From the NCBI GenBank assembly GCA_965249865.1, contig CBDFMZ010000001.1:128415-192414 (forward strand): 64,000 nucleotides of DNA, written 5' to 3'. Each line of letters starts with the position of its first letter. Within the stretch, counting starts at the first letter, position 1. The notes below the pieces were generated by a model. It was not told the origin of the DNA, made no database searches, and saw only the letters and a program-made list of their open reading frames with translations. Below are positions 587-57,836 of this stretch, piece by piece. This stretch comes from Acidobacteriota bacterium (GTDB lineage Bacteria; Acidobacteriota; UBA6911; RPQK01; CBDFMZ01). A program made the translations under genes and the position numbers.

Positions 587-1444
587 TTAGCGTTTGTGTG
601 GTAAAACCTTCGGGGATGATTTTCTTAAGAATGTTCCGGATTTACCCTCGAGACCTTCAAGCAAAGCGCCCTCTCTTAGACCACTGAGAATTTGCACAAC
701 CGCAACCCCGTGCTCTAAAACATTCAGTGCTGCTTCGACTTTCGGAACCATCCCACCCGTCAAAGCGCCTTGGCGAAGATATTCTTTTGCCTGTTCTGCG
801 TTCAACTCCGAAACAATGGTGGAAGGATCTTGCGGATCGAGGTAAATTCCATCAACGTCGGAAACTGAGATCAACCGCTCGGCACGAAGTGCAATGGCCA
901 GTTCTGCCGCCAGAGTATCCGCATTGATATTCAAAATTTGGCCCCTCGAATCGGAGCAAAGACAACTCACGACCGGGATCCATCCTAGTTGCCACAGTTG
1001 AGACAATACGGCTACCTCGATCTTTTCGACCTCCCCCACGAGACCAAAATCGATTTTCTCAACCTTCCTTTCCCCACACGTTCCCGTCCGGGTTACTGAA
1101 ATGGGTGGCCGCCTGCGGCAGCGAACTAAGTTTACATCGAAGCTAGAAATGCCAATCGCTGTCACGTCCGAAGCCAACAAACTCGCCACCAGGTCACGGT
1201 TAACGGCGGAAAAAACCATCTTGGCAGCTTCAAGGGTGGCCTCATCAGTGACGCGCCGTCCTTGATACTGTTTACTGGTAAGCCTAAGTTGTTTACTGAA
1301 TGCAGTGAGCTGTTTTCCTCCCCCATGGACGAGCACCAGGCGATGGCCCTCTCGAGCCAGTTTGGCGACCTGGCGACCCATGTGTGAACTCCCGCGGATT
1401 TCTTCTAATACTTTTCCACTGAGTTTAAGGACCAAGGTCATCAC
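587..1444 (-). CDS. argB: acetylglutamate kinase
   Basis: 285 aa with VLVHGGG and NINAD motifs of the amino-acid kinase family. It overlaps argD by 4 nt, indicating translational coupling. Confidence 0.9.
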   Translation of the reverse strand: MMTLVLKLSGKVLEEIRGSSHMGRQVAKLAREGHRLVLVHGGGKQLTAFSKQLRLTSKQYQGRRVTDEATLEAAKMVFSAVNRDLVASLLASDVTAIGISSFDVNLVRCRRRPPISVTRTGTCGERKVEKIDFGLVGEVEKIEVAVLSQLWQLGWIPVVSCLCSDSRGQILNINADTLAAELAIALRAERLISVSDVDGIYLDPQDPSTIVSELNAEQAKEYLRQGALTGGMVPKVEAALNVLEHGVAVVQILSGLREGALLEGLEGKSGTFLRKSSPKVLPHKR

Positions 1445-2604
1445 ACCTGTAACGCCTCCAGAAAAAGATCGATCTCCTTCCTGGTAATGGTCAGAGGAGG
1501 CATCAGGCGCAGGACATAGGGATCATCCGAAGTCCCAGTGAGAATTCCCTTGCGCAAAAGGATCTGTTGCATATCCTTGGCTTTAGGAGCACCCTCAGTA
1601 TCCTTCATCTTGATACCCACCAGAAGACCTTGACCCAGAATATCACCGATCTCAAGGTCGGTTAACCGTTTACGTAGATAGCGACCCATATTGAAAGAGT
1701 TCCGGCACAGATTTTCACTGGAAATCACATCCAGAGTGGCCTCTATGGCAGCACATGCCAGCGGTCCACCGCCAAAAGTAGCTCCCAGGTCCCCACTGTG
1801 CACGTGATCGGCAACAGCTTTGGTCATCAACACCGCGCTGGCTGGAAAACCCGAAGCAATGCCTTTGGCCAAGGTCACGAGGGGTGGATAAACACCGCCT
1901 CGACCGGCGTAGAGGAACGAGCCTGTTCTTCCTACACCCGTCTGAACTTCGTCAAAGATCAGAAGCGCTCCCTGTTTGCGACAAGCCCCATCGATCTCGG
2001 TGAGGATCTCGAGAGTGATCTCACGAACGCCTCCCAGGCTTTGAATGGGCTCTAGGAGTACTCCAGCAGTCTTCTGAGAAATCGCAGCCGCCACCTCGTG
2101 CACCGGTAAAATCCGATGCATCGGCACAGGTGTGTTGAGATAGGCAGAGTATTTGGAAATTCCGGTGCTGGATAGACTCCCATAGGTTCTACCATGAAAC
2201 GATCCGGTCAAAGAGATGATCTCAGCTCGACCGGTGACAGCACGGGCCAGTTTGAGGGCATTGTCGTTTGCCTCGCTGCCCGAATTGACCAAAAAAGCCT
2301 GATGGTAGGGAGAACCTGCTATTTCCACAAGCTTTCGGACTGCTCGTGAGCGCACACTGTTATAGGTCACATTGGAATAGAAGATCAGTTCCGCAACCTG
2401 TTTTTGGATGGCTTCGACAAGACAAGGGTGACAATGCCCCGTGGAAACGACGGCGTGCCCGCCATATAGATCAAGGTATTTGTTTCCATCGGAATCATAA
2501 ACGTAACAACCCTCTCCGGACTCAATCGAGATGGGGATTTTGGAATACGTTCTTGCCTGATATCGATCCTCATCGGTTCGAATCTGATCAATTCTGGTGG
2601 TCAT
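1441..2604 (-). CDS. argD: acetylornithine aminotransferase (class III PLP aminotransferase)
   Basis: 387 aa with LIFDEVQTGVGRTG, the PLP-lysine region of class III aminotransferases. It lies between argC and argB. Confidence 0.85.
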   Translation of the reverse strand: MTTRIDQIRTDEDRYQARTYSKIPISIESGEGCYVYDSDGNKYLDLYGGHAVVSTGHCHPCLVEAIQKQVAELIFYSNVTYNSVRSRAVRKLVEIAGSPYHQAFLVNSGSEANDNALKLARAVTGRAEIISLTGSFHGRTYGSLSSTGISKYSAYLNTPVPMHRILPVHEVAAAISQKTAGVLLEPIQSLGGVREITLEILTEIDGACRKQGALLIFDEVQTGVGRTGSFLYAGRGGVYPPLVTLAKGIASGFPASAVLMTKAVADHVHSGDLGATFGGGPLACAAIEATLDVISSENLCRNSFNMGRYLRKRLTDLEIGDILGQGLLVGIKMKDTEGAPKAKDMQQILLRKGILTGTSDDPYVLRLMPPLTITRKEIDLFLEALQV

Positions 2605-2622: not shown

Positions 2623-3633
2623 TTACGGAAAAATAGGAGGGCTATTCAGAGCCGTCTCTTCCGGAAAACCACACATCAAGTTCATGTTTTGTACAGCTTG
2701 ACCGGCGGCTCCCTTTTGTAGATTGTCCAGGGTTGACCAAACGATTAAAAATCCATCCTGTGTTGCCGCTCCAAGATCCACAAAGTTTGAATGTCGGATA
2801 GAGTTGACGTCGGGACAACCGGAAACCCACCGAATGAAGTAATCCGATCCATAGTAGCGTTGGTAAAGGGCAGATACTTCCGCCGAGTTTACCCGCTGGT
2901 CCAGTTCGAGATAGTGGCTAGAGAAAATACCCCGAACAAAAGGCGCCGAATACGCCTGAAAGATGATGGAGAGGTCGGGTTTACTCATTAATTGGGTAAT
3001 CTCGGGAAGTTGTTGGTGTCGAAATGGCTTATAGGGAAACAGACTGTTGGTGCGGCGTGGATGATGGGTGCCCTGCGCCGGAGTGTTTCCAGCGCCCGAT
3101 GAACCCGTCTTGGCATCGACAAACACTGGTCCTTTGATCCAACCCTCCTGATAAAGAGGATACAGCGCTAACAGCGTCGCGGTGGCAAAGCAACCCGGAT
3201 TGGCTACCCGCCGAGTCTTTCGTATCTCCTCCCGCTTGAACTCCGACAGCCCGTAAACGAACTGTTTCTGCACTGCAGGACAGGTCATGGGAATCTGATA
3301 GAAGGTTTGAAAGATCTCGGGATCGGAGAGACGAAAATCCCCACTTAAATCGATCACGATTAACTCTTCCGGAAGTCCGGGCACAATTTTCATGGCCTCA
3401 CCATGCGGCAGTGCCAAGAAAAGGACGTCCAGTTCTGAAGCCGTAAGATCCTCTAAAGAAGAAAACTGTTTTTGTAACAAACCGCGTAGGTTGGGATAAA
3501 GATCAATCAGATTCTTACCAACATGCTGTTGGGAAGAGATCCACTCAATCCGGACTCGAGGGTGACCAAGCAGGATGTGGATTAACTCAACACCACCGTA
3601 GCCTGAGCCTCCAGCTATACCGATTTTAACCAT
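2623..3633 (-). CDS. argC: N-acetyl-gamma-glutamyl-phosphate reductase
   Basis: It has the N-terminal MVKIGIAGGSGYGG Rossmann motif and the NPGCFATA active-site Cys motif. The listed ORF begins 10 codons further upstream at a TTG (3663), but the ATG at 3633 gives the canonical N-terminus. Confidence 0.9.
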   Translation of the reverse strand: MVKIGIAGGSGYGGVELIHILLGHPRVRIEWISSQQHVGKNLIDLYPNLRGLLQKQFSSLEDLTASELDVLFLALPHGEAMKIVPGLPEELIVIDLSGDFRLSDPEIFQTFYQIPMTCPAVQKQFVYGLSEFKREEIRKTRRVANPGCFATATLLALYPLYQEGWIKGPVFVDAKTGSSGAGNTPAQGTHHPRRTNSLFPYKPFRHQQLPEITQLMSKPDLSIIFQAYSAPFVRGIFSSHYLELDQRVNSAEVSALYQRYYGSDYFIRWVSGCPDVNSIRHSNFVDLGAATQDGFLIVWSTLDNLQKGAAGQAVQNMNLMCGFPEETALNSPPIFP

Positions 3634-4706
3634 GGCATCAGAACATCCAAAATAAAGGTGCAAATCTTCCCGCCGCTATCCAAGGCATTGGCAGCCGGGA
3701 TATCCCAGTTTTCCTCGATGTAGCGTACTCCTTCCGCACTGTCTGTCACCGGCCCGGAAATGAGCAAAGGACACCCTACCTGTCCCCGACCCTTTTGAGA
3801 CATCCACTGAATACCTCCCCAGGCACCCATCAAATCATTCGCGCACAAAACCAAGCAGAGGCAGCGGCTCATCAGCCCAGCGTCTTCAAACAAGGAGGCA
3901 ACATTGTAGCCACCTAAAATGCCGTCCCCCATCTCCAACACAATGAAATCGGGCTTGGGTTGAGACAAGTGACCCAGGAGAGAGCGCGCGATCGGAGCAA
4001 GATCCCCCACATGGGTAGTCGAGGGAAGACCAAAGTCAAGAAAACTCAAGACCTTCTTCGCCCCACATCTTGTCATCGACACCGTATCCTGTAAACAAGC
4101 CACACCGGCGACCTTTCCCGCATTGACTGAGAAACCCTTTTCCGTAAAAAGCCTGAGGATCTGTTTGCAGGCAGCAGTTTTGCCGGCATTCATGCAGGTA
4201 CCCAGCACCATTACAATTGGCACATCCGGCAAGGAATTATTGAGAAGAGGAAAGGCTCGGTCCTTCAGATTGAGTGGGCGCCCTTGTTGACTGACGCTAC
4301 CCAGATATTCAACTTGGGTGGGCCACCCCAGGTCACGGTGAAAAGCCGTGCATTCCCCAATCACTCCTCCTTTATTGACCAGGTAAAGGGACATTCCTGG
4401 CCTTAGCCTGCCCGGCACCCGTCCCGAAAATCCTCGTAAAGCCCTTCGGCTTCCCAAAACACCCACGATGATTTGATCCTGGCGCAGTTCAACTCCTTCA
4501 CCTGTAACCGTCTCCAGCAGCGGATAAAAGCGATTGACTGCCCGGACCCGTGCCACAACAACTTCCCCTTCCTGTCCCATCCCGGTAGTCACAGTATGGA
4601 TGGGGACGAAAAAGGACAAAGAAGAAACCGCCGAAGCAATCAGGTCCGGAAAAACCTCCTCGGCTTTCCTGTCAACAATAGATGTCACGAATTCTTTTGT
4701 GCTCAT
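3615..4706 (-). CDS. P-loop protein, DUF1611-like (Rossmann-like N-domain plus GTxxxAGKT P-loop); first gene of the arg operon
   Basis: 363 aa with the motif VLGTCMNAGKTAAC, which resembles the GTDCxVGKxT P-loop of the DUF1611 family, and the size fits that family. It overlaps the argC start by ~19 nt, so it is co-transcribed with argCDB. The family assignment is from memory of the motif and is not verified. Confidence 0.55.
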   Translation of the reverse strand: MSTKEFVTSIVDRKAEEVFPDLIASAVSSLSFFVPIHTVTTGMGQEGEVVVARVRAVNRFYPLLETVTGEGVELRQDQIIVGVLGSRRALRGFSGRVPGRLRPGMSLYLVNKGGVIGECTAFHRDLGWPTQVEYLGSVSQQGRPLNLKDRAFPLLNNSLPDVPIVMVLGTCMNAGKTAACKQILRLFTEKGFSVNAGKVAGVACLQDTVSMTRCGAKKVLSFLDFGLPSTTHVGDLAPIARSLLGHLSQPKPDFIVLEMGDGILGGYNVASLFEDAGLMSRCLCLVLCANDLMGAWGGIQWMSQKGRGQVGCPLLISGPVTDSAEGVRYIEENWDIPAANALDSGGKICTFILDVLMPWLKSV

Positions 4707-4817: not shown

Positions 4818-4901
4818 TTATGCATAAAAAATACAATTATTCATCATAACTTCCTTCTGTCAAGCCATATTATGTATAATTATTAACTTTATTATGCATA
4901 A
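4818..4901. promoter_or_regulatory. Three TTATG(C/T)ATAA palindromic boxes (4818-4827, 4870-4879, 4892-4901) in an AT-rich region upstream of the arg operon; candidate ArgR-type operator
   Basis: The boxes are perfect or near-perfect 10-12-bp palindromes. Boxes 2 and 3 are 22 bp centre-to-centre. They lie 112-195 bp upstream of the operon's first start codon and resemble the ARG-box half-sites TGNAT....ATNCA. Confidence 0.35.
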
Positions 4902-9689: not shown

Positions 9690-10736
9690 ATGAAGAGAAA
9701 AATCCTGCTATTGCTGGCTGTGAGTTGCATTGCCTACTATCCGTCCCGAAGTGATGTCGCCGAGATGGTCTCTAGCGCACGAGATTTCTTAGCTTCACTG
9801 GGTAGTGAACAACAGGCCCACGCAACATTTTCATTTCAAGACGATGAACGTTTAAACTGGCACTATATCCCAAAAGCGCGAAAAGGCGTTTCCTTTGAAG
9901 ATTTGGCACCAGCACAGCGCAAGATGGCCCATGTGCTTATGGCCTCTGGTTTAAGTCGAGAGGGTTACAGGAAAGCCAACCAGATTATCTATCTCGAACA
10001 GATTCTTTATGAGTTGGAAGACCAGAATCCCGTACGTGATCCCGAAGACTACTTCTTCTCGGTTTTTGCCAAACCCTCAACTACGAGCACCTGGGGATGG
10101 CGATTGGAAGGACATCATCTCACTGTCAACTTTACGATTGACAAAGGTCAAGTGATTTCAGCAACTCCTTTTTTTTTCGGAGCCAATCCGGCTCATGTTT
10201 TAGAAGGACCGCACAAGGGATTGCGCGTCCTGGCGGCTGAGGAGGACAGGGCCCGTGAACTGTTCCTTTCTTTAAAGAAGTCACATGGCGAAAAGGTTCT
10301 CATCGACGTTGAAGCTCCTGCCGAGATAATCACGGGTGCCGACCGTCAGGCCAAGATGGACCTTCCCGTGGGAATCCTCCTTTCCGAGATGAAAAAAGAA
10401 CAAGCTGCCCATTTGATTGATCTAATCAGCTTGTATGCCAACCGGCTCCGTCCCGAACTGGCTGAAGTTGAATGGAAAAGATTACGTCAGGAGGGGATTG
10501 AGAAGATTCATTTTGCCTGGGCAGGAGCAAGCGAACGGGCTCAACCCCACTATTACCGAATTCAGGGTCCGACTTTTGTCATCGAATACGATAACACGCA
10601 AAACAACGCTAACCATATTCACAGCGTTTGGCGTAACTTCACGAACGATTTCGGTCTCGACGTGCTACGACGGCACTATGTCCAGAATCATCCCGGTGTT
10701 AATCTTTCCACGGCGTCACCCTCAAGGACGCTTTGA
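9690..10736 (+). CDS. secreted hypothetical protein, DUF3500-like
   Basis: It has an N-terminal signal peptide, and WGWRLEGHHLTVNFT resembles the conserved DUF3500 motif. The family call is tentative. Confidence 0.5.
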   Translation: MKRKILLLLAVSCIAYYPSRSDVAEMVSSARDFLASLGSEQQAHATFSFQDDERLNWHYIPKARKGVSFEDLAPAQRKMAHVLMASGLSREGYRKANQIIYLEQILYELEDQNPVRDPEDYFFSVFAKPSTTSTWGWRLEGHHLTVNFTIDKGQVISATPFFFGANPAHVLEGPHKGLRVLAAEEDRARELFLSLKKSHGEKVLIDVEAPAEIITGADRQAKMDLPVGILLSEMKKEQAAHLIDLISLYANRLRPELAEVEWKRLRQEGIEKIHFAWAGASERAQPHYYRIQGPTFVIEYDNTQNNANHIHSVWRNFTNDFGLDVLRRHYVQNHPGVNLSTASPSRTL

Positions 10737-10796
10737 TGAAGCTCGGCGCAACGCTCGGGCGACGGATGCATTTTTGAAACACAAAAGATCAGGAAA

Positions 10797-11456
10797 GTGA
10801 ATCCATTCAACATCATCAGCGTCATCTGCTCCATTTTGGTCTTGGCCTCGGTGCCCAACGAAACAGGTTTTATTCCCCTTTTTGACGGCAAGACTTTAAA
10901 CGGGTGGGAAAAGCACATGGGACTTCCCGCCGACAACATCGGCGGGAAATGGAAAGTGATCGACGATGCCATCACTGGAGATCAAGATCCTCCCGGGAAG
11001 GGAGGCTTCCTCATTACTGATGAGATCTACAGTGATTTCATCCTGAAGCTGGAGACCAAGATCGACTGGCCGATCGATAGTGGGATTTTCCTTCGCGTCG
11101 GTGAAGACGGCAAGAGTCACCAAGTGACACTCGACCATCGCCCGGAGGGTGATATCGGAGGAATCTATTTACCTTGGACACAAGGGTTTGTCCGGCGAAG
11201 TCCGCAAGGGATTCAGTACTGGAAAACGGGAGTGTGGAACGATGTTAAGATCCAGATCGAGGGGGAGCCCGCCCGCATTCATTTCTGGCTAAATGGCTAT
11301 TTGGTAACAGATTTCCAGCATACCGAAAAGACCACGCGAGGTGTTCCCCGCACGGGCTACATTGCCTTGCAAATCCATCCGGGTAAAGACTGGGTTCCTG
11401 GGAACAAGGCGCGATTCCGCAAGATCCGTATCAAGCCTAGGCACCCGCACCAGTGA
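10797..11456 (+). CDS. DUF1080 (3-keto-disaccharide hydrolase-like, concanavalin-type fold) secreted protein
   Basis: It has a signal peptide, then IPLFDGKTLNGWEK...KWKVIDDAITGDQ...GGFLITDEIYSDFILKLE...ALQIHPGK, the typical DUF1080 pattern. Confidence 0.7.
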   Translation: MNPFNIISVICSILVLASVPNETGFIPLFDGKTLNGWEKHMGLPADNIGGKWKVIDDAITGDQDPPGKGGFLITDEIYSDFILKLETKIDWPIDSGIFLRVGEDGKSHQVTLDHRPEGDIGGIYLPWTQGFVRRSPQGIQYWKTGVWNDVKIQIEGEPARIHFWLNGYLVTDFQHTEKTTRGVPRTGYIALQIHPGKDWVPGNKARFRKIRIKPRHPHQ

Positions 11457-11487
11457 AAGGTGTAGTCCGCGACAACACTCTGCAGGT

Positions 11488-13272
11488 TCAAAGATCGGCA
11501 ACCTCTACTCCCGCGCTAACCCAGCGCGGGGGCATCTGAACACCTCGAATCTCCTGGTAATCTATGTTGAGCATATTGGAACACTCCACATAGAAGTTGA
11601 ATTTCCCAAAAGTATGCTTTAAGCGTCCATCCAATATCCAGTAGCTGCGGCCGTCGGCGCGGCGCTTGTAATCGATTCTGTGTCCCAGCGTTAGAGACCA
11701 GGGGAGACTAATACCGCCGAAAGCACTGAAGGAGTGACGGGCGTAATCGAGAACATACTTGGAGAGAAAGGGAACAAAACCCGCATCGGAGGAGAGGTAG
11801 GTGTACTGTAATCCCAGCTGCCCGCCGGAATCTAGAAACCGTTGGATGTTTGCCTCGACTCCTCGCGTTTTCAAATCTCGAATGTTCGTGGTGTTCCATT
11901 TCTGGCTTGGATTTTCACGGATCCAGTCAATCACGTCTTGCTCCCAGCGCGAGAACAGAGTCAGACCGGCCATCCAATTGGGCTGCGGTAACCACTCGAC
12001 TCCAGCTTCAGCTCCCCAGGCTTTTTCTGGCTTGAGCGAAGAACTCGCCTGGTGATTGGGGTCTCGGTAAAACCGCTCCGTGAAGGTGGGAATGCGAAAA
12101 GCGTGCCCAAGCGAGGAACGCAATTTCACGGTTGGGAAAAGCCACCAGCTAGCGCTGAGAGAAGGGCTGGTCGAAGATCCGAAATTCGAATAGTTATCGT
12201 ATCGGATCCCGGGGTAGAGCACACCCCTATCGCCCAGCTTTAGCTGTATCTCGGCAAAGGCACTGCGTCGAGAGTAATCATGGTCTCCTAAATTATTGGA
12301 CCGGATCCAGTCCTCACCGATTTCTACTCCTACAGTCAGTTGGGTCTGGTCTGAAAAACTCCGCTGCGCCTTTGCTAAACCTCCGAAGGCATGGGTGCGA
12401 TGGCGATTTTCGAAAAAACCAGGTCTTCCAATATCCCAGAGAAAATGGTCTCCGTGAGTCCTATAAAACACTTGTCCCGTCACATTCCACTGCCTTACCA
12501 GAAAAAGCTGATGGTCAAAAGAGAGGAGGGTTTGATTGGTCCACTCTTTGGAAGGTGATGGCCCGTAAAAACCGTTGGCCCCGAACTCTTTTCCCAGGTG
12601 CGAAATGAACAGAAAGGAACGTTCCCCAAAGTAGCTTTGAGAGGTAAACCCAATCGTCTGAAAATCCCGGTCGAACATAAAACCGGAGGAGCGATTGCCG
12701 GAAGCGGAAAATGACTGACGTATCCCGTTCTTTTCAAACTTCACGCCGGCCGAGCCGTCGACCAGGCCAAATTCTCCTACCGAGAAGTGGGCACGTTTAC
12801 CACTTCCTTTTTGACGGGTAATGATGTTAATGGTCCCGCCAAACGCGTCAGCACCGTAAAGGGAGGACCCTGGGCCGTAGAGAATCTCCACGCGGTCGAT
12901 ATCCTGGAGAAGAACTGGAATATCGGAATTATGATGTCCAGACTGGGAATCATTGAGTCGAATCCCATTGACCAAGACCAGAACCTGTCCAAAACCCGCA
13001 CCCCGCACCGAGAAATCAGCCTGCACTCCTAAAGGACCGCGCGCTCGGACTTCCAGACTGGCCGCGTAACGCAACAGCTCAGGAACTGAGCGAACGGGAA
13101 GCCGGGCAATCTGCTCATGATCGAGCACGGTCACCTTTCTAGCCAGATTCTTAAACGGAACCGGATGGCTAGTGGCAGAAACGATGACGGCCTCTTCAAT
13201 CGGTTTCTGAGCATGAGTCGCACTGGTGATCCACAAAAGTAACAAAAGTCTGCTCAATCGTCTTGAAGCCAA
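11488..13272 (-). CDS. TonB-dependent outer-membrane receptor (short, BtuB-like)
   Basis: It has a signal peptide and a plug domain with the TonB box and the ...VEILYGPGSSLYGADAFGGTINIITR motif. The 594-aa beta-barrel ends in an aromatic residue. Confidence 0.8.
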   Translation of the reverse strand: MASRRLSRLLLLLWITSATHAQKPIEEAVIVSATSHPVPFKNLARKVTVLDHEQIARLPVRSVPELLRYAASLEVRARGPLGVQADFSVRGAGFGQVLVLVNGIRLNDSQSGHHNSDIPVLLQDIDRVEILYGPGSSLYGADAFGGTINIITRQKGSGKRAHFSVGEFGLVDGSAGVKFEKNGIRQSFSASGNRSSGFMFDRDFQTIGFTSQSYFGERSFLFISHLGKEFGANGFYGPSPSKEWTNQTLLSFDHQLFLVRQWNVTGQVFYRTHGDHFLWDIGRPGFFENRHRTHAFGGLAKAQRSFSDQTQLTVGVEIGEDWIRSNNLGDHDYSRRSAFAEIQLKLGDRGVLYPGIRYDNYSNFGSSTSPSLSASWWLFPTVKLRSSLGHAFRIPTFTERFYRDPNHQASSSLKPEKAWGAEAGVEWLPQPNWMAGLTLFSRWEQDVIDWIRENPSQKWNTTNIRDLKTRGVEANIQRFLDSGGQLGLQYTYLSSDAGFVPFLSKYVLDYARHSFSAFGGISLPWSLTLGHRIDYKRRADGRSYWILDGRLKHTFGKFNFYVECSNMLNIDYQEIRGVQMPPRWVSAGVEVADL

Positions 13273-24489: not shown

Positions 24490-27400
24490 TCAGGACAATG
24501 TCTCTTGCCCCACCAAGCCGTGGTACTCGTGGAGGCTTTTCACACTAATCTTTTCCTGCTGCAGCGCTCGAATGGCGCTGACGGCAGCAGCGGCGGCCGA
24601 GAGGGTAGTAATGCACGGTGTGTTAAATTGAGAACAAGCGCGCCGGATGGCTTTCTCATCATAAAACGACTCCCGGCCCAATGGAGTGTTCACTACCAGA
24701 TCGATCTTCTTGCTCTTAATGAGGTCGACCACGTTGGGACGGCCTTCATTGACTTTATAAACCGTTTCGACGTCAAGACCCGTTTCGTCCAAACACCGGG
24801 CGGTGCCGCGGGTCGCAATAATCCGAAACCCGAGGTCCTGAAAATCTCTTGTAATATTGGTGATAAAGCGCTTATCTCGTTGATTGACGCTGACAAAAAC
24901 AGTGCCTCCCTTAGGGTAATAAACTCCCGCGCTTATCTGGGCTTTGGCATAAGCATAGCCAAAACTGTCCGAAGTCCCCATGACCTCTCCCGTGGATTTC
25001 ATCTCGGGTCCCAAAATTGTGTCGACTTTTGGAAACTTGTTGAAGGGAAAAACCGGGGTCTTAACAGCATATGAACGGACCTGGAGATCATCTATTACAC
25101 CCAGTTCCTCCAGCTTCTTGCCGATAATCAGCTGAGCAGCTATTTTAGCCAGAGGAACGCCGGTCGCCTTACTGACAAAGGGGACCGTCCGGCTGGCTCT
25201 GGGATTCACCTCTAGAACGTGTACTTTGTTTTCCACTACTGCAAACTGAACGTTCATCAGACCCACAACTCGGAGTGCAGACCCCAATTGACGGGTGTAC
25301 TCCCGAATCGTCTCCAGGTGCTCTTTCTCAATAACAATGGGAGGCAAAACCGAGGTGCTGTCTCCGGAATGAATACCGGCTTCTTCGATGTGTTCCATGA
25401 TGCCCCCAATGACCACCCGATCTCCATCTGATAAGGCGTCAACATCATACTCCCGGGCGTCCTCGAGAAACCGGTCAATGAGAACTGGATGCTCTGGAGA
25501 CACTTCGACAGCAGAACTGACGTATTTTTCCAATGATTTTTCATCGTAAATGATGGCCATCGCCCGGCCACCCAGCACATAAGAAGGACGCACCAGAATG
25601 GGGTAGCCTATTTGTCGAGCAACCTCCCTTGACTCCTCAACGGACATGGCGGTGCCGTTATCGGGTTGGAGGATTTGTAAATCGTTCAGAAGTTTACCGA
25701 ACCTCTTTCGATCCTCTGCCAAATCGATGTACTCGGGAGGTGTTCCGAGGATCGGAACACCTACATTATGAAGTTTCAGAGCGAGCTTCAGCGGAGTTTG
25801 GCCACCGAACTGAACGATCACCCCTTCCGGGTGTTCCTTGTCCACGATGGTCATTACATCTTCAAAGACCACCGGCTCAAAGTACAGTCGGTCCGAGCTG
25901 TCGTAGTCGGTCGAGACCGTCTCCGGATTGCAATTAACCATGATGGTCTCAAAACCAGCTTCTTTGAAGGCAAAGGCCGCATGGCAGCAACAGTAATCGA
26001 ACTCGATTCCCTGCCCGATGCGATTGGGACCACTTCCCAAAATCATGATCTTTCGGCGCTTGGTCGGCTGTGCTTCATCCTCGCTCTCGTATGTCGAGTA
26101 GAGGTAAGGAGTATACGATTCAAACTCCGCCGCGCAGGTATCGATTCTTTTGAAAACGGGAAGCAGGTTGTGCTTCTTGCGATAAATCCAAACTTCCTGC
26201 TCTGTCACTGGGGAATTTTTGCTAAAGATCTCCGCCAGTCGAAGATCGGACAATCCTTCCCGTTTGGCCTTGCGCACCAGTTCCGGATCAATACTTTGCA
26301 AATCGAAAACTTTCCATTGCTGAACTAAACGAACGACCTGCTGAATCTGATGGAGAAACCAGCGATCGATCTTTGTGAGCTCGTAAATCTCATCAAGGTT
26401 GTATCCCTCAAGCATGGCCAGCCTTATGTATGCCAATCTGTGGGGATTGGGTTGAATGAGGTTTTCCCGAATCCGATCCTTAAAAACCTTCTCCCCGGCT
26501 AATGTCTTTCCAGTCTCCAGGGAGCGCAGCCCTTTCAGCAAAGCTTCTCGGAACGTTCGACCGATAGCCATAACCTCTCCCACCGACTTCATTTGCGTGC
26601 CCAGGATCGGTTCGGCTTCAGGGAATTTTTCAAAATTCCACTTTGGAATCTTGACCACCACATAATCCAGAGTAGGTTCAAAAGAGGCCGGCGTCTTCAG
26701 TGTAATGTCGTTTGGAATTTCATCCAAGGTGTAGCCTATCGCCAACTTGGCCGCGATTTTGGCGATGGGGAATCCCGTGGCCTTAGAGGCTAAAGCAGAG
26801 CTTCTGCTGACCCGTGGATTCATCTCAATCACCACCATACGGCCGCTCTCCGGGTTCACTGCAAACTGTATGTTGGAACCTCCCGTCTCCACCCCCACCT
26901 TGCGAATGATGCCGATCGCAGCATCACGCATCCGTTGATATTCTTTGTCGGTCAGAGTCTGTGCCGGCGCCACCGTGATAGAATCCCCAGTGTGCACCCC
27001 CATAGGATCAAAGTTCTCAATGGAACAAATGATCACCACATTGTCATTGAGGTCTCGCATGACCTCCAGTTCAAACTCTTTCCAGCCAATGATAGATTCT
27101 TCCACCAAGATTTCGTGGATTAGGGATAAGTGTAAGCCGCGAGTGGCGATCTCTTCAAACTCCTCGCTGTTAAAAGCGATCCCTCCCCCCGACCCCCCCA
27201 TTGTGTAAGACGGTCGAATCACCGCCGGAAGTCCCACTCCTTCCAAGATCGCGACGGCTTCTTTGAGGCTGTTGGCAAAACCGGAATGAGGTACTTCCAG
27301 TCCAATCTCTTCCATGGCCGCCCGAAACTGGCGACGGTCTTCAGCAATCCGGATCGCATTTAGGCGTGCTCCAATCATCTCCACGCCAAACTTTTCCAGG

Positions 27401-27738
27401 ATGCCTCGCTCACAAAGTTCAACCGAGACATTTAGGCCGGTCTGGCCTCCTACCGTGGGCAGCAAGGCATCCGGCCGTTCCCGCTTGATGATTTCAGCCA
27501 AGAAATCACAGTTGATCGGTTCAATATAAGTCCGAGTGGCTAATTCCTGATCCGTCATGATGGTTGCAGGATTACTGTTGACCAAAATGACCTCGAATCC
27601 ATCACCGATAAGGGCCTTACAGGCCTGGGTCCCCGAATAGTCAAACTCGCAAGCTTGACCAATGACAATCGGCCCCGACCCGATGATTAAAACTTTCTTG
27701 ATATCGTCTCTTCTAGGCATGAGATGACTCCCAGGCAC
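24490..27738 (-). CDS. carB: carbamoyl-phosphate synthase large subunit
   Basis: 1082 aa with duplicated ATP-grasp domains and an MGS-like C-terminal domain; the conservation is unmistakable. Confidence 0.95.
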
Positions 27739-27965
27739 TCTCCTCAGACGATTGACCGTCGATTACTGACCGCAGCCGGCAAATGTCACGGAGACCAAGG
27801 GGTCGACCCAGGCGAACCGCACTATGTCTCAGTCTCCAATTATTCATCAGACAGGACACTAGCCGAGTTGCTGAAAAGTGCAAGCTCATGGTTTTACTTT
27901 GACTCACTTTTCACCCATCGCTTCGGTCACCGTTCACACGCTTGTAACTCCACCTCTTCCCGTGA

Positions 27966-29063
27966 TCAACAGGTCGCTTTCTCCTTCATCAGCTGAATAA
28001 AATCATCGAACAGATACAGTGAATCATGAGGACCCGGGGAAGCCTCCGGATGGTACTGCACCGAGTAGACCGGAAGGTATCGATGGCGGATACCTTCCAG
28101 AGTCCGGTCGTTCAAGTTCATGTGGGTAAACTGAACCACACGGTCCTCCAGGGAATCGGAATCCACCGCGAAACCATGGTTATGGCAGGTGATTTCAATC
28201 TTGTTGGTTATCAAGTTCTTCACTGGCTGGTTTCCCCCCCGGTGTCCGAACTTTAGCTTGTAAGTTTTTCCTCCCAAAGCCAGCCCCAACAGTTGATGTC
28301 CCAAACAGATGCCAAAAATAGGCTTCACACCGATTAGTTTCTTAACATTTTTCACCACGTACTCAAGAGGTTCTGGATCTCCCGGCCCGTTGGACAAAAA
28401 GACTCCGTCAGGGTTAAGGGCCAAAACATCCTCTGCCCCGGTTGTGGCAGGTACAATCGTCATATCACAGCCTCGCTCAGCCAAGCAGTTCAAAATATTG
28501 GTTTTAACTCCAAAATCATAGACCACCACCCGATAACAAGGATGCTCACTTGAACGTGAATAAACCTGATCTGTGGTGACCGAGCGGACATAGTCGCTTC
28601 CAGTCATCTTGGGATGTTCAAAAACCTTGCGCCGCAGGGAATCGGGGTCAAAATCGAGTGTGGAAATTATCGCCCGCATAGTACCCCTTTTCCGAATGTG
28701 TCGAACTAGAGCACGTGTGTCAATCTCTGAAATTCCAGAAATACGGTTCTCACGAAGGTATTCGTCCAACGTTTTTTGACCTCTCCAATTGCTGAAGAGC
28801 GGACTACACTCTCTCACCACAAATCCTTCAACAAAGGTTCGTCGCGACTCCTCGTCAGCCGAATTGGTTCCATAATTGCCCATTTCAGGTTGGGTCATCA
28901 CCAGGATTTGACCAGCGTAAGATGGGTCAGTCAGTATTTCCTGGTAGCCCAACATTGAGGTATTAAACACGACTTCGCCCAGAGATTCCCCCTGCACTCC
29001 GAAGGCGATACCCACAAAAGAAACCCCATCTTCAAGGTATAAAATTGCTTCTGATTCTTGCAT
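27966..29063 (-). CDS. carA: carbamoyl-phosphate synthase small subunit (glutaminase)
   Basis: GICLGHQLL is the class-I GATase catalytic Cys motif; 365 aa. Confidence 0.9.
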
Positions 29064-53792: not shown

Positions 53793-55235
53793 TTAGGTAA
53801 GAATTTCTTTAACCACCCGTCCGTGGACGTCCGTCAGACGAAAGTCGCGGCCGCTGTAACGGTAAGTCAACCTCTCATGATCGAGTCCCAAAAGATGGAG
53901 AATGGTGGCGTGCAAGTCGTGAATGTGGACTTTCTCCTCGACAGCTTTGAAACCGTAATCGTCGCTGACGCCGTAGACCTGACCATTTCGGACGCCACCG
54001 CCAGCTATCCAAGCGCAGAAGCTATAAGGACTGTGTCCCCGACCATACGTGTCAGCTTTGTCCTTCCCGTCGGAAAGATCTTGACGATGAGGTGTCCGTC
54101 CGAACTCACCGGACCAGACCAGCAGGGTGTCGTCGTAGAGCCCCCGAGCTTTGAGGTCGGTGATGAGGCCGGCAATTGGCTTGTCAACTGCGGCACAGCG
54201 TTCGGGAAGTCCCGAAAGAATGCTGCGATGATGATCCCAACCGTCGTCGGTGATCTGGACAAACCGTACTCCCGCTTCGGCAAAGCGCCGCGCCAATAGG
54301 CACTGGCGTCCGAAATTGTCGGTCTCTTTTTCGCCGACTCCGTAAAGTTCGAGAGTTGCCTTCGACTCCGACGATAGGTCAATGAGATCAGGAGCCTCCG
54401 ACTGCATCCGGAAGGCGAGCTCGAACGACTCGATGACTCCTTCCATTTGACGGCTGGTTCCCAGCTTCTGGAGGTGGGCTCGATTCATTTCCTGAATCAG
54501 ATCAATCTGAACTCGCTGCAACTTGGACGGGAGGTTAGGATCTTCCAGATGGCGGAAAGTAGCGTTCTTTGTACCATCTTCTACATTTTTGCCCAGCTGG
54601 GTACCCTGGTAGACAGCGGGCAGAAAAGCATTCCCGAAGAGATGGACACCACCAGTGTCACCTTCCATTCTCGGGCAGATGCTAATGAATCCGGGTAGGT
54701 CTTGGTTTTCGGTCCCCAAGCCGTAGCCGATCCAAGCCCCCATCGAAGGACGAATCAGCTGCGTTGCCCCCGTGTGCAATTGCCTGGCCGCGGGTGCATG
54801 CGCTTCGCTGTCAGCCTGCATAGCGTTGAGCACACAAAGGTCATCGGCGTATTTGCCTAGCTGCGGCAGCCACTCGGTCATCATCAACCCGGACTGCCCT
54901 TGCCGTCGGAACGGGGAAATGGGTCCCATTAATCGGGTTCCGGACATGCCCACAGTGTCTCTATTGCCTGGAAACTTGTAGGGGATCCGCTCGCCATTAT
55001 CTCGCACGAGACGTGGTTTGTAGTCGAACAGGTCGACTTGTGACGGACCACCCTGCATCCACATGAAAATTACTCGACTAACCTTCGGAGCAAAATGGGG
55101 AATCTTGGGTGCCAAAGGGCTGCCGGCTTTGGCGACCTGCTCGGTACACATGGCAGCTAAGGCCACTGAGCCAAAACCACAACCCGTCCTCCGAAGAAAT
55201 TGGCGACGTGTATAGCGGCTAGGACTAATGATCAT
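53793..55235 (-). CDS. DUF1501 (sulfatase-like) protein with twin-arginine signal
   Basis: RRQFLRRTGCGFGSVALAA is a TAT motif. The full-length DUF1501 architecture is the partner of DUF1553 proteins. Confidence 0.9.
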   Translation of the reverse strand: MIISPSRYTRRQFLRRTGCGFGSVALAAMCTEQVAKAGSPLAPKIPHFAPKVSRVIFMWMQGGPSQVDLFDYKPRLVRDNGERIPYKFPGNRDTVGMSGTRLMGPISPFRRQGQSGLMMTEWLPQLGKYADDLCVLNAMQADSEAHAPAARQLHTGATQLIRPSMGAWIGYGLGTENQDLPGFISICPRMEGDTGGVHLFGNAFLPAVYQGTQLGKNVEDGTKNATFRHLEDPNLPSKLQRVQIDLIQEMNRAHLQKLGTSRQMEGVIESFELAFRMQSEAPDLIDLSSESKATLELYGVGEKETDNFGRQCLLARRFAEAGVRFVQITDDGWDHHRSILSGLPERCAAVDKPIAGLITDLKARGLYDDTLLVWSGEFGRTPHRQDLSDGKDKADTYGRGHSPYSFCAWIAGGGVRNGQVYGVSDDYGFKAVEEKVHIHDLHATILHLLGLDHERLTYRYSGRDFRLTDVHGRVVKEILT

Positions 55236-55241
55236 TGGTAA

Positions 55242-57836
55242 TTATCCTCGAAAAAGGAATTCGTTCGATACAATTACAGCATGACAGTAGCGTGCCCATG
55301 CTTCAAGACGTGGATTTTCTGGCGGGTTGGACAGCAGGGTGAGCTGCTCTTCAAAATCCGCCAGGAATTGCAACGCCCGAACCCGTTCTTGCTCTGTCAC
55401 TGGCCGGTTCAAAGCCTTGAGAGTAAAATGAGCGATTCGCTTTCGGTCGTCAAGCTCTTTTTTCTCCAACAGAACCCGGGCCATCAGGCGAGCTTGCTCC
55501 TGTACAAAGGGAGAATTCATCAGGTAAAGACTCTGCGTAGGAACGGTCGTGACCGAACGGACCCCAGTCGTCTCATCGGGATTGGGAAAATCAAAGAGAT
55601 CCAGAACCTCGAGTTGCTCCAGCTGGCTCTTACGAAGCATGGGCAAGTAGACCGTTCTTCGACGAAGGGTAGCTTCGCTCAACTTCGCCTCTTCCAATAG
55701 TAACGTCGGACGGCCGAAGTCGATGTTGTCAGCAACGTCCAAAGGGAGGGTAGGGCCTCCCCCCCTTACGAGGTCCAATCGCCCGCTGATAGCCAACAGG
55801 GAGTCACGATAGGCTTCCGCCTCCAGTCTTCGGTTATTAGCGCGCCACAACAGGCGGTTTTCGGGGTCGAGCTCGTGTGCTGTCACATTGTGAACGCTAG
55901 CTTGCCGGTAGCTGCGGGTCAGAACGACTTCCCGAATCACGCTCTTGATGGACCAGCCCTGTTCAACAAAGCGCGAAGCTAAGTAGTCGAGTAGTTCGGA
56001 ATGGCTAGGCACCTCCCCGCGCCTGCCGAAATTGTCGAGTGTACCAACCAATCCCGGACCAAACAGGTGATGCCAGATCCGGTTGACCATCACTCTAGCC
56101 GTGAGGGGGTTATCCAAGTCGACCAGCCATACAGCCAGTTCCAGGCGCCCACTAGATCTCACGTAACGACCTTTCAGGTCTCGACGTTCGGCAAATCGGG
56201 GTGGAGGTTTGGTCGAAGCAATCGAAAGGAAACCTCTGGGAACAACCTTTCCCAGACTGTGGGGATTTCCACCAATGTTGATTCGGCAATCTTCGGGAAG
56301 ATCCCGGTCCGTGGTCGCGATCGCCAACGGTGCGCTAGGTTTGTTGAACTCTAGCATTTGGACACGATGGGTAGCTTCCTGGAGTTTTTTGTCAATTTCT
56401 TCGACTTCTTTTGCGATCTGCGCTTTTTCGGCAGAATCGGCTCCTCCCTCTTCCAGATCTTGCTGCCGGTCTAGTAATCGCTTTTTCTCGCGGTCGATTG
56501 TTTTTTGCGGAATCAGAGCCTCCGCCAGGGCCTTTTCATACTGCTCGGTCGCTGCAGCTCTCTTGGCGAGCTCCACCGAGGTCTCAGGCAGAGGAACTCG
56601 ATTGATCTTGCTCCAAACTCCACTCTCGCGACCGTCGAGAGTCTTTGTGCTCCGAAATACCCCTGCCAGCGCATAGTATTCGCGGGTGGGGATGGGGTCA
56701 AACTTGTGATCGTGGCAACGTGCGCAACCAAGATTCAATCCCAAAAAAACTCGGCCTAAAGTATCAATCTGGTTATCCACTACATCCATACGGAGCTGCT
56801 CTTTGTCGGCATCTACCAGAGCCCAAGGTCCAATCGCCAGGAAACCCGTGGCGATGATCTGCTCACGACGCTGTGCGTCATTTTCCCAGTCGAGCACGTC
56901 CCCCGCGACTTGCTCTTGAATGAATCGGTCGTAGGGCTTGTCGTTGTTAAAGGAATTGATGACGTAGTCGCGGTACCTCCAGGCCTCTTTGGCCGGGACA
57001 AGACGACCTTTGCCCAGGTTATTGGCATAGCCCGTCAAATCGAGCCAATGACGACTCCAGCGCTCCCCAAAACGGGGAGATTGCAGCAGCCGATCCACAA
57101 TCTTCTCAAAAGCATCTTGGGAGTCATCCTTGATGAATGCTTCAATCTCTGCTGGTCTCGGGGGCAGTCCCGTGAGATCTATATAGACGCGGCGCAGCAG
57201 TGTGTAACGGTCGCTGTCAGTAGATGGACTTAGACCCTGGGCTTCCAGCTTGGCCAAAATAAAATGGTCGATAGGACTACTACTGGGCCAGTCTCCGTTT
57301 TGAACGGTGGGTGGGGACACCCTGCGCACGGGCTGCCAGGACCAGTGGTCACGACTAACGTCGGTGTCCGCTTTCGGTTGCGTGATCTTGACGGTTACAG
57401 CTGCCTGGTCCGGCCAGGGTGCTCCCATCTCCACCCATTTAACTAGAAGCGCGATCTGGGTGTCCGCTAACTTCCCACTCGGTGGCATCTCAAGATTTTC
57501 CTGACGAACCGCCTGTATGAACGCGCTTAATTTGGGATCTCCAGGGACCATGACCGGACCGCGATCACCACCCTTAAGCATCCCGGCGCGGCTGTCCAAA
57601 TGCAAATTAGCGAATAACGTCTTGGCCCGTGCACTGTGGCATTGGTAACAGTTCTCAGCCAGCAGGGGCCGGATCTTCGATTCAAAGAACTCGATCTGTT
57701 TTTGGTTGGGCTGGGCGGTCTGTGGAATGATACAGAAAAAGAACAGTGTCGGGAGTACAGACAAAACCCGACCGGAGATTGAATTCAAACCAAAAGATCG
57801 ATGAAAGCTCACCTTCGAGACACCTTCGAACCCCAA
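55242..57836 (-). CDS. PSCyt1/DUF1549/DUF1553 (PSD1) domain protein
   Basis: The N-terminal CYQCHS haem-binding-like motif (planctomycete cytochrome C domain); 864 aa. It is 7 nt upstream of the DUF1501 gene. Confidence 0.9.
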   Translation of the reverse strand: MGFEGVSKVSFHRSFGLNSISGRVLSVLPTLFFFCIIPQTAQPNQKQIEFFESKIRPLLAENCYQCHSARAKTLFANLHLDSRAGMLKGGDRGPVMVPGDPKLSAFIQAVRQENLEMPPSGKLADTQIALLVKWVEMGAPWPDQAAVTVKITQPKADTDVSRDHWSWQPVRRVSPPTVQNGDWPSSSPIDHFILAKLEAQGLSPSTDSDRYTLLRRVYIDLTGLPPRPAEIEAFIKDDSQDAFEKIVDRLLQSPRFGERWSRHWLDLTGYANNLGKGRLVPAKEAWRYRDYVINSFNNDKPYDRFIQEQVAGDVLDWENDAQRREQIIATGFLAIGPWALVDADKEQLRMDVVDNQIDTLGRVFLGLNLGCARCHDHKFDPIPTREYYALAGVFRSTKTLDGRESGVWSKINRVPLPETSVELAKRAAATEQYEKALAEALIPQKTIDREKKRLLDRQQDLEEGGADSAEKAQIAKEVEEIDKKLQEATHRVQMLEFNKPSAPLAIATTDRDLPEDCRINIGGNPHSLGKVVPRGFLSIASTKPPPRFAERRDLKGRYVRSSGRLELAVWLVDLDNPLTARVMVNRIWHHLFGPGLVGTLDNFGRRGEVPSHSELLDYLASRFVEQGWSIKSVIREVVLTRSYRQASVHNVTAHELDPENRLLWRANNRRLEAEAYRDSLLAISGRLDLVRGGGPTLPLDVADNIDFGRPTLLLEEAKLSEATLRRRTVYLPMLRKSQLEQLEVLDLFDFPNPDETTGVRSVTTVPTQSLYLMNSPFVQEQARLMARVLLEKKELDDRKRIAHFTLKALNRPVTEQERVRALQFLADFEEQLTLLSNPPENPRLEAWARYCHAVIVSNEFLFRG

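Follow-up and report, generated by a model that had tools for sequence, protein, structure and literature searches.

How does a bacterium begin arginine biosynthesis when its arginine operon carries neither argA nor argJ? The question is raised by a stretch of 64,000 nucleotides from an Acidobacteriota bacterium (contig CBDFMZ010000001.1, positions 128,415 to 192,414), referred to here as the window, in which a gene that we call X (3615..4706, minus strand) heads an operon with argC, argD and argB. We propose, with a probability of roughly 0.7, that the X protein attaches an acyl group, probably succinyl, to the amino group of L-glutamate and in this way feeds ArgB, ArgC and ArgD. The synthase idea has already been put forward in the GapMind 2026 preprint for what is apparently the same protein family, and the role of X is a prediction here as well.

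X encodes 363 residues from an ATG start codon, and its sequence contains VLGTCMNAGKTAAC; the open reading frame (ORF), its homologues, a structural model and the synteny with argC all mark it as a candidate N-acyl-L-glutamate synthase gene. Behind it on the minus strand lie argC (2623..3633, with the ATG at 3633; 336 residues; TIGR01850 at 357.9 bits, cutoff 233.6), argD for the N-acylornithine aminotransferase, of class III (1441..2604; PF00202, Aminotran_3, at 323 bits, and TIGR00707, the best NCBIfam model, at 333 bits where the cutoff is 410) and, as the last gene of the operon, argB for the N-acylglutamate kinase (587..1444; TIGR00761 at 195.6 bits, cutoff 151.3). X and argC overlap by 19 nucleotides (nt) and argD and argB by 4 nt, while 18 nt separate the argC stop codon from argD. 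Independent gene calling on a 1.32-Mb metagenomic contig with 99% identity (L081) gave the same four genes with the same X/argC overlap (X at 10001-11092, argC at 11074-12084, 336 residues), and showed that the operon ends with argB, beyond which gatA, gatC and ribF are convergent. The anatomy given in the preliminary description of this locus, namely a 363-residue ORF with a GTCMNAGKT motif at the head of X-argC-argD-argB, translationally coupled through overlaps of 19 and 4 nt, is thus confirmed.

The same description had noted that argJ and argA are absent from the cluster, and this also holds on a wider scale. Neither the window nor 93 related loci contained a match to the ATML-type motif of ArgJ, its autoproteolytic site, to the GNAT domain of Escherichia coli ArgA or to E. 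coli ArgE, nor were an ArgJ motif, an ArgA GNAT domain or ArgE seen anywhere within 1.4 Mb of related neighborhoods. No candidate for the acylation or the deacylation step is present among the window's 20 largest further ORFs. The sole further arginine-related genes seen in the window are carB (1082 residues) and carA (365 residues), which lie on the same strand about 20 kb from the arg operon (24490-29063). A pathway with the LysW carrier protein was considered and ruled out by the absence of LysW and ArgX genes and by the scores of argB and argC, which exceed the cutoffs of the acetylglutamate-type NCBIfam models.

The gene neighborhood of X is conserved far beyond this organism. A scan with one genome per species returned 576 relatives of X, of which the best 80 loci were kept for their context, and in all 78 loci that show both genes argC lies directly downstream of X, at a median gap of 40 nt and with 12 overlapping pairs. 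These arginine-linked loci come from Acidobacteriota (UBA6911-like lineages, Blastocatellia and Thermoanaerobaculia), Sumerlaeota, Planctomycetota, Oligoflexales and metagenome-assembled genomes (MAGs) of Pseudomonadota. Clustering of the neighboring ORFs, with Pfam labels, revealed that most of them contain a full cluster, in which a divergent argH is followed by argR-argG-X-argC-argD-argF'-argB; the operon of the window is a reduced form of this arrangement, without argF', argG, argH and argR, and argF' was not found elsewhere in the window. A Pseudomonadota/'Deltaproteobacteria' MAG has this block too, at 43% identity to X, and the linkage holds down to 35% identity, where a reduced block argG-X-argF'-argH-argS is seen. 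The conserved block covers every step of arginine biosynthesis except the acylation of glutamate and the removal of the acyl group, with carbamoyl-phosphate synthesis encoded elsewhere. X very probably works in arginine biosynthesis, a role already suspected in the preliminary description and now backed by the synteny, by the gap in the pathway and by a fusion of X with ArgB; the linkage to argC in related genomes, whose examination that description had proposed, proved to be without exception in the 78 loci. As a separate observation, 16 clusters of Pyrinomonadaceae type carry a gene for a 120-residue tRNA-binding-domain protein, similar to CsaA or the C terminus of MetG, between argC and argD (for example L013 12141-12521 and L051 12156-12527, with 14 other loci).

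The fusion is found in a protein of 626 residues (P0161), whose X domain retains both the P-loop and the EMGDG-type motif intact and whose other part is an amino-acid kinase of ArgB type (PF00696 E 5e-33; TIGR00761 127 bits). Four contigs, from three samples or more, carry it (among them L087 8001-9881, L088 6077-7957 and L089 402-2282), and its gene stands there outside any arg operon, divergent to a gene of the arginase family. Since the X part begins about 57 residues into the profile of the N-terminal domain, P0161 may have been called from a wrong start. Synthase and kinase domains joined in one protein are the classical architecture of ArgA and of the bifunctional NAGS/K (PMC4490483), and P0161 therefore speaks for one metabolite on which both X and ArgB act.

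Which acyl group is used is suggested by the carbamoyltransferase ArgF' encoded beside X in the relatives. These proteins match NF003384, the NCBIfam equivalog model for N-acetylornithine carbamoyltransferase (AOTCase), at 450-462 bits, and they are nearer to the AOTCase of Xanthomonas (340 bits) than to the N-succinylornithine carbamoyltransferase (SOTCase) of Bacteroides (210 bits). The two activities are told apart by three residues, which are Glu92, Asn185 and Lys302 in AOTCase, and A/S/P/V/Q, P and V/I/E at the same positions in SOTCase (PMC4581275). In the numbering of the Xanthomonas AOTCase, the triads of 54 ArgF' neighbors of X are TPI (40 proteins), TPV (9), APV (2), APE, PPE and SPV (one each), and two clusters from outside the phylum (L090 and L093) have SPV and API; Glu92, Asn185 or Lys302 is carried by none of the 56. 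All 56 bear the SOTCase signature. By this reasoning succinyl is a likelier acyl group than acetyl, and the arginine-linked X pathways probably run on N-succinylated intermediates without acyl recycling. Because an acylornithine carbamoyltransferase is present in the clusters, ArgJ-type recycling would not operate and a stoichiometric synthase would be required. An ArgJ-like ornithine transacylase role for X, which the preliminary description had raised as an ornithine-acyl-transfer step, was rejected as unlikely on the same ground. Its other suggestion, a novel enzyme forming N-acetylglutamate, survives as the best-supported reading in its synthase part, whereas the acetyl group has given way to succinyl. 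The ArgF' proteins of L082 (13639-14646), L084 (13772-14773) and 52 other loci (cluster c5) pass the acetyl equivalog model and have the SOTCase residues, so automated annotation probably names the wrong substrate for them.

What kind of protein, then, would carry out the first step? Judging by 2696 homologue clusters at 90% identity (E<=1e-3), X is a genuine gene; at 50% identity its homologues amount to 1856 representatives, 515 of them below 1e-30, and the nearest relatives are Acidobacteriota MAGs. Searches of Pfam and NCBIfam with X assigned no family and gave no match of the GNAT, ArgJ or DgcN type, and the profile search that had been proposed as a check thus did not place X in any other well-characterized family. 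PF07755 and PF17396 did not match X even at E<=1. Among 28 aligned homologues, 20 have sub-threshold matches to PF07755 (best E 3.6e-5) and 24 have weak matches to MobB, which, as far as profiles can tell, points to kinship at the level of the superfamily only; PF17396 (DUF1611_N) matched neither X nor any of the 28.

The AlphaFold (AF2) model of X is confident (predicted local distance difference test score, pLDDT, 90.8; predicted template modeling score 0.88) and has two domains. Residues 14-150 (4257..4667, minus strand) form an all-beta domain of 11 strands (model m74dd5bbd3575; pLDDT 95.5 when modeled alone), for which Foldseek found no counterpart in the PDB (best E 0.44) and in which S25, E65, R87 and several glycines are invariant across the 28 homologues. 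Residues 164-362 (3621..4217, minus strand) form an alpha/beta P-loop domain of the SIMIBI/BioD type, as judged by Foldseek against the PDB. Its Walker A motif GTCMNAGKT (residues 169-177; 4176..4202, minus strand) has the BioD-type pattern G-x5-GKT and aligns with the P-loop of BioD. FtsY, dethiobiotin synthetase (BioD) and HypB are matched at E about 1e-5, with the BioD structures at 7e-6 to 2e-5, and the DUF1611 protein DgcN (7XRJ) follows at rank 27 (E 6.7e-5; root-mean-square deviation, rmsd, 5.7 Å over 242 columns). Sequence searches of the PDB, whether run with X or with the profiles A1 and A3, gave matches at the level of the P-loop motif only and did not recover the DgcN/DUF1611 structures. 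Invariant across the 28 homologues are G169, G175, K176 and T177 of the P-loop and also K198, E258 (in LEMGDG) and D261. K198, 22 residues past the P-loop lysine, aligns with K37 of BioD, and E258 with E115 in the EGAGG motif of that enzyme, whose K37 and E115 have well-established functions; the hhalign alignment of X with BioD, that of these motifs included, is statistically weak (probability 5.5%). X has no NKxD motif, and its P-loop is of the BioD/CobQ enzyme type, not of the G3E GTPase type.

Several known systems resemble X in one respect or another. The closest is the family of ACG33_RS14135 (A0A127FCT3) from Steroidobacter denitrificans, a hypothetical protein that the GapMind preprint predicts to be an alternative N-succinylglutamate synthase (10.1101/2024.10.14.618325). 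According to its account, the members are almost invariably located in arginine operons alongside argB, C, D, F', G, H and R, never co-occur with ArgA, weakly resemble 7XRJ by Foldseek (rmsd 5.6 Å) and neighbor an ArgF' without Glu92; a deacylase is also missing in Steroidobacter, and some homologues adjoin plausible argE candidates (10.1101/2024.10.14.618325). X shares with this family, as the preprint presents it, the arginine operons, the remote similarity to 7XRJ (5.7 versus 5.6 Å), an ArgF' without Glu92 and, as far as the window and the 93 related loci show, the lack of an ArgA partner. It differs in that its clade is acidobacterial, with mostly Thr at position 92 of ArgF', a residue that is rare in the set that the preprint presents, and in that the operon of the window consists of X-argCDB only, whereas those described for ACG33_RS14135 include argF', G, H and R. 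The preprint's passages on ACG33_RS14135 make no mention of an X-ArgB fusion, of boundaries towards the paralogues or of a BioD-like motif set. No match named Steroidobacter appeared among the homologue searches with X and the cluster listings. Comparing the two by their descriptions and not by sequence, we consider it very likely that X is an acidobacterial member of this family.

X is not a member of DUF1611, and the resemblance to that family which the preliminary description saw in X has shrunk to a superfamily-level likeness to DgcN (7XRJ; PF07755 plus PF17396). Papers that cite the work on DgcN describe it as a D-glutamate N-acetyltransferase that pairs with the N-acetyl-glutamate racemase encoded by dgcA. 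DgcN and X have in common the P-loop fold of the C-terminal domain and, for X as proposed, the amino group of glutamate as acyl acceptor. However, the all-beta N-terminal domain of X contrasts with the Rossmann-like DUF1611_N domain of DgcN, and there is no significant sequence or profile similarity between the two. DgcN serves D-glutamate catabolism together with DgcA, whereas X occurs in biosynthetic arg operons; a catabolic pairing of the dgcA type was not seen, and arginine biosynthesis genes are the neighbors of X in all arginine-linked loci. The GNAT-type synthase of Bacteroidetes (BT3761 / Cabys_1732) is comparable to X in its proposed reaction, in the succinylated pathway, in the SOTCase-type ArgF' and in its place inside an arg cluster. 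It has a GNAT fold, whereas X combines a P-loop with a beta domain, and X would be an analogous and not a homologous replacement. ArgA, NAGS/K and ArgJ act at the first arginine step, as proposed for X, and the joining of an amino-acid kinase domain to a GNAT domain in the bifunctional NAGS/K offers a parallel to P0161; yet X has neither a GNAT nor an ArgJ (PF01960-type) domain, and the recycling of acetyl from acetylornithine by ArgJ is impossible in a route that uses acylornithine carbamoyltransferase. With BioD and the SIMIBI ligases (CobQ/CobB, MobB-like) X shares the G-x5-GKT motif, the lysine 22 residues on and the E-G-x-G motif, and they are among its top structural matches. BioD, in contrast, consists of one domain and uses ATP and CO2 to close a ureido ring, and the sequence similarity of X to it is confined to the motifs.

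In the mechanism that we favor, X would attach an acyl group to the alpha-amino nitrogen of L-glutamate; the product, an N-acyl-L-glutamate and most likely the N-succinyl form, would then be phosphorylated by ArgB, reduced by ArgC and transaminated by ArgD. X would be a non-homologous substitute for ArgA, ArgJ and the GNAT-type synthase of Bacteroidetes. Its BioD/DgcN-like P-loop domain may bind the adenine-nucleotide part of the acyl donor, and the all-beta domain would supply the glutamate site. The donor favored by analogy with DgcN, which reportedly depends on acetyl-coenzyme A (CoA), would be an acyl-CoA, with the 3'-phospho-ADP of CoA in the nucleotide site.

A variant of this proposal, possible but less probable, makes X a CoA-independent ligase that would use ATP to convert succinate or acetate into an acyl phosphate for attack by glutamate. 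The BioD-type P-loop, the alignment of K198 and E258 with K37 and E115 and the place of BioD among the top structural matches would suit such an enzyme, and K176, T177, E258 and D261 are invariant, as expected for chemistry with a Mg-nucleotide. Against this stand the weak hhalign score with BioD and the description of DgcN, the only characterized relative, as an acetyltransferase; moreover, a site for an adenine nucleotide could equally take the ADP moiety of CoA, and an ATP-dependent ligase would be without precedent in arginine pathways. In this scenario X would bring new enzymology to the entry of the arginine pathway, and the paralogues of X linked to ABC exporters or RimK would represent a wider, unrecognized family of ATP-dependent N-acyl-amino-acid ligases that combine a novel beta domain with a P-loop domain.

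Other explanations deny X the acylation step. It could be a regulatory or accessory nucleoside triphosphatase, that is, an activator or sensor of ArgB or a SIMIBI metallochaperone for a metal-dependent deacylase or arginase, given that many SIMIBI relatives (HypB, MobB, FtsY) are chaperones or GTPase switches and that both the fusion to ArgB and the divergent arginase-family neighbor of the fusion gene would fit. We consider this unlikely: it would leave the first step without a candidate in otherwise complete clusters and does not sit well with the mutual exclusion with ArgA that the preprint reports for its family (10.1101/2024.10.14.618325), the P-loop is that of BioD/CobQ enzymes and not of G3E GTPases, with no NKxD, and the invariant polar residues S25, E65 and R87 of the N-terminal domain suggest a substrate site. 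A still weaker case can be made for X as the deacylase of N-acylcitrulline or N-acylornithine, the function of ArgE. The gene for this step is also missing from the clusters, and likewise in Steroidobacter by the preprint's account, but the P-loop nucleoside triphosphatase fold is not known for amide hydrolysis, the fusion partner ArgB catalyzes the second step and is not a late-pathway enzyme, and some homologues in that account adjoin plausible argE candidates, so we regard this role as very improbable. Finally, the preliminary description had held that X could equally be an unrelated hitch-hiker. Paralogous clades of the same superfamily are indeed not linked to arginine genes; nevertheless, this reading is rejected, with a negligible residual probability, because the adjacency to argC (78/78 loci) is conserved across at least five phyla, often with overlapping start and stop codons, and X is fused to ArgB.

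Some points count against X as an N-acylglutamate synthase. The role is a prediction for every member of the X family, including those of the preprint, and the kinship with the ACG33_RS14135 family is drawn from descriptions that match. That argA and argJ are missing is a finding on the window and the 93 related loci, at the scale of loci and not of whole genomes. The similarity of X to DgcN is no better than that to FtsY, BioD or HypB, and HMMER profiles are blind to it. The X-ArgB fusion would also fit a regulator of ArgB. With regard to the acyl group, the window is devoid of argF', so succinyl is extrapolated to this organism from its relatives, and Thr at position 92 of ArgF' falls outside the residues that have been swapped experimentally (A/P/S/V). 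Lastly, paralogues of X with 30-36% identity adjoin ABC exporters or RimK-type ligases and not arg genes.

These paralogues delimit the family. They are full-length relatives built from the same two domains as X (hhalign probability 100, E 2.5e-56, 315 columns). A large clade at this level of identity is always encoded directly upstream of an exporter gene of the ABC_membrane+ABC_tran type, in the gammaproteobacterium Thiosocius, the cyanobacterium Chlorogloeopsis and a Bryobacterales MAG (loci such as L085 8001-10900, L086 8001-10839 and L092 2048-4989), and NCBI labels some of its members 'DUF1611 domain-containing'. Some proteins of this clade (P0265, P0391) have an N-terminal response-regulator receiver domain. 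In Aenigmatarchaeota, a homologue with 32% identity (L091 7001-9878) is followed by two genes for ATP-grasp ligases of the RimK/glutathione-synthetase type and by one for a protein with a C39 peptidase domain, a context that hints at another role, perhaps in glutamate-ligating or peptide-modifying chemistry. Since the paralogues are not linked to arginine genes, function is clade-specific, and its transfer should be confined to the arginine-linked clades.

Annotations repeatedly leave the first step of arginine biosynthesis without an enzyme. In a study of freshwater Acidobacteriota, for example, most Holophagaceae were scored as lacking N-acetylglutamate synthase, and X is the kind of enzyme that could fill a gap of this sort. 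If X is a glutamate N-acylating enzyme, large groups of bacteria from soil and sediment (Acidobacteriota, Sumerlaeota, and some Planctomycetota, Gemmatimonadota and Proteobacteria) would be arginine prototrophs instead of the auxotrophs that they appear to be, and the succinylated arginine pathway would extend far beyond Bacteroidetes. The P-loop scaffold would then be a third unrelated solution for the N-acylation of glutamate, beside GNAT and ArgJ.

The region upstream of X contains possible regulatory elements. A promoter-like site, TTGACA-16-AATAAT, lies at 4836..4863 on the minus strand, about 130 nt upstream of where the coding sequence of X starts; it agrees with the consensus at 11 of 12 positions, and is a consensus match only, of a kind no commoner in the region than in shuffled sequences. 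Around this site stand three copies of the palindrome TTATGCATAA (4818..4901, without strand), two of them perfect and one with a single mismatch. The whole window contains four matches to TTATGCATAA, against 1.0 expected, and three of the four fall within this 84-bp stretch. A motif of the form T[AT]T[GA]CATA[AT] is rare in the related loci, with 15 matches in 1.44 Mb, seven of which are intergenic and upstream of X, argR or argH. The palindromes are a candidate operator. The ARG-box of E. coli type (TGAATWWWWATTCA) had fewer matches than in shuffles, with only one weak match near the promoter, and was dropped as evidence, and Rfam gave no match on the leader and the operon. Elsewhere in the window, at 53793-57836, a DUF1501 gene stands beside a PSCyt1/PSCyt2/PSD1 gene, a planctomycete-type pair that is ordinary for such genomes.

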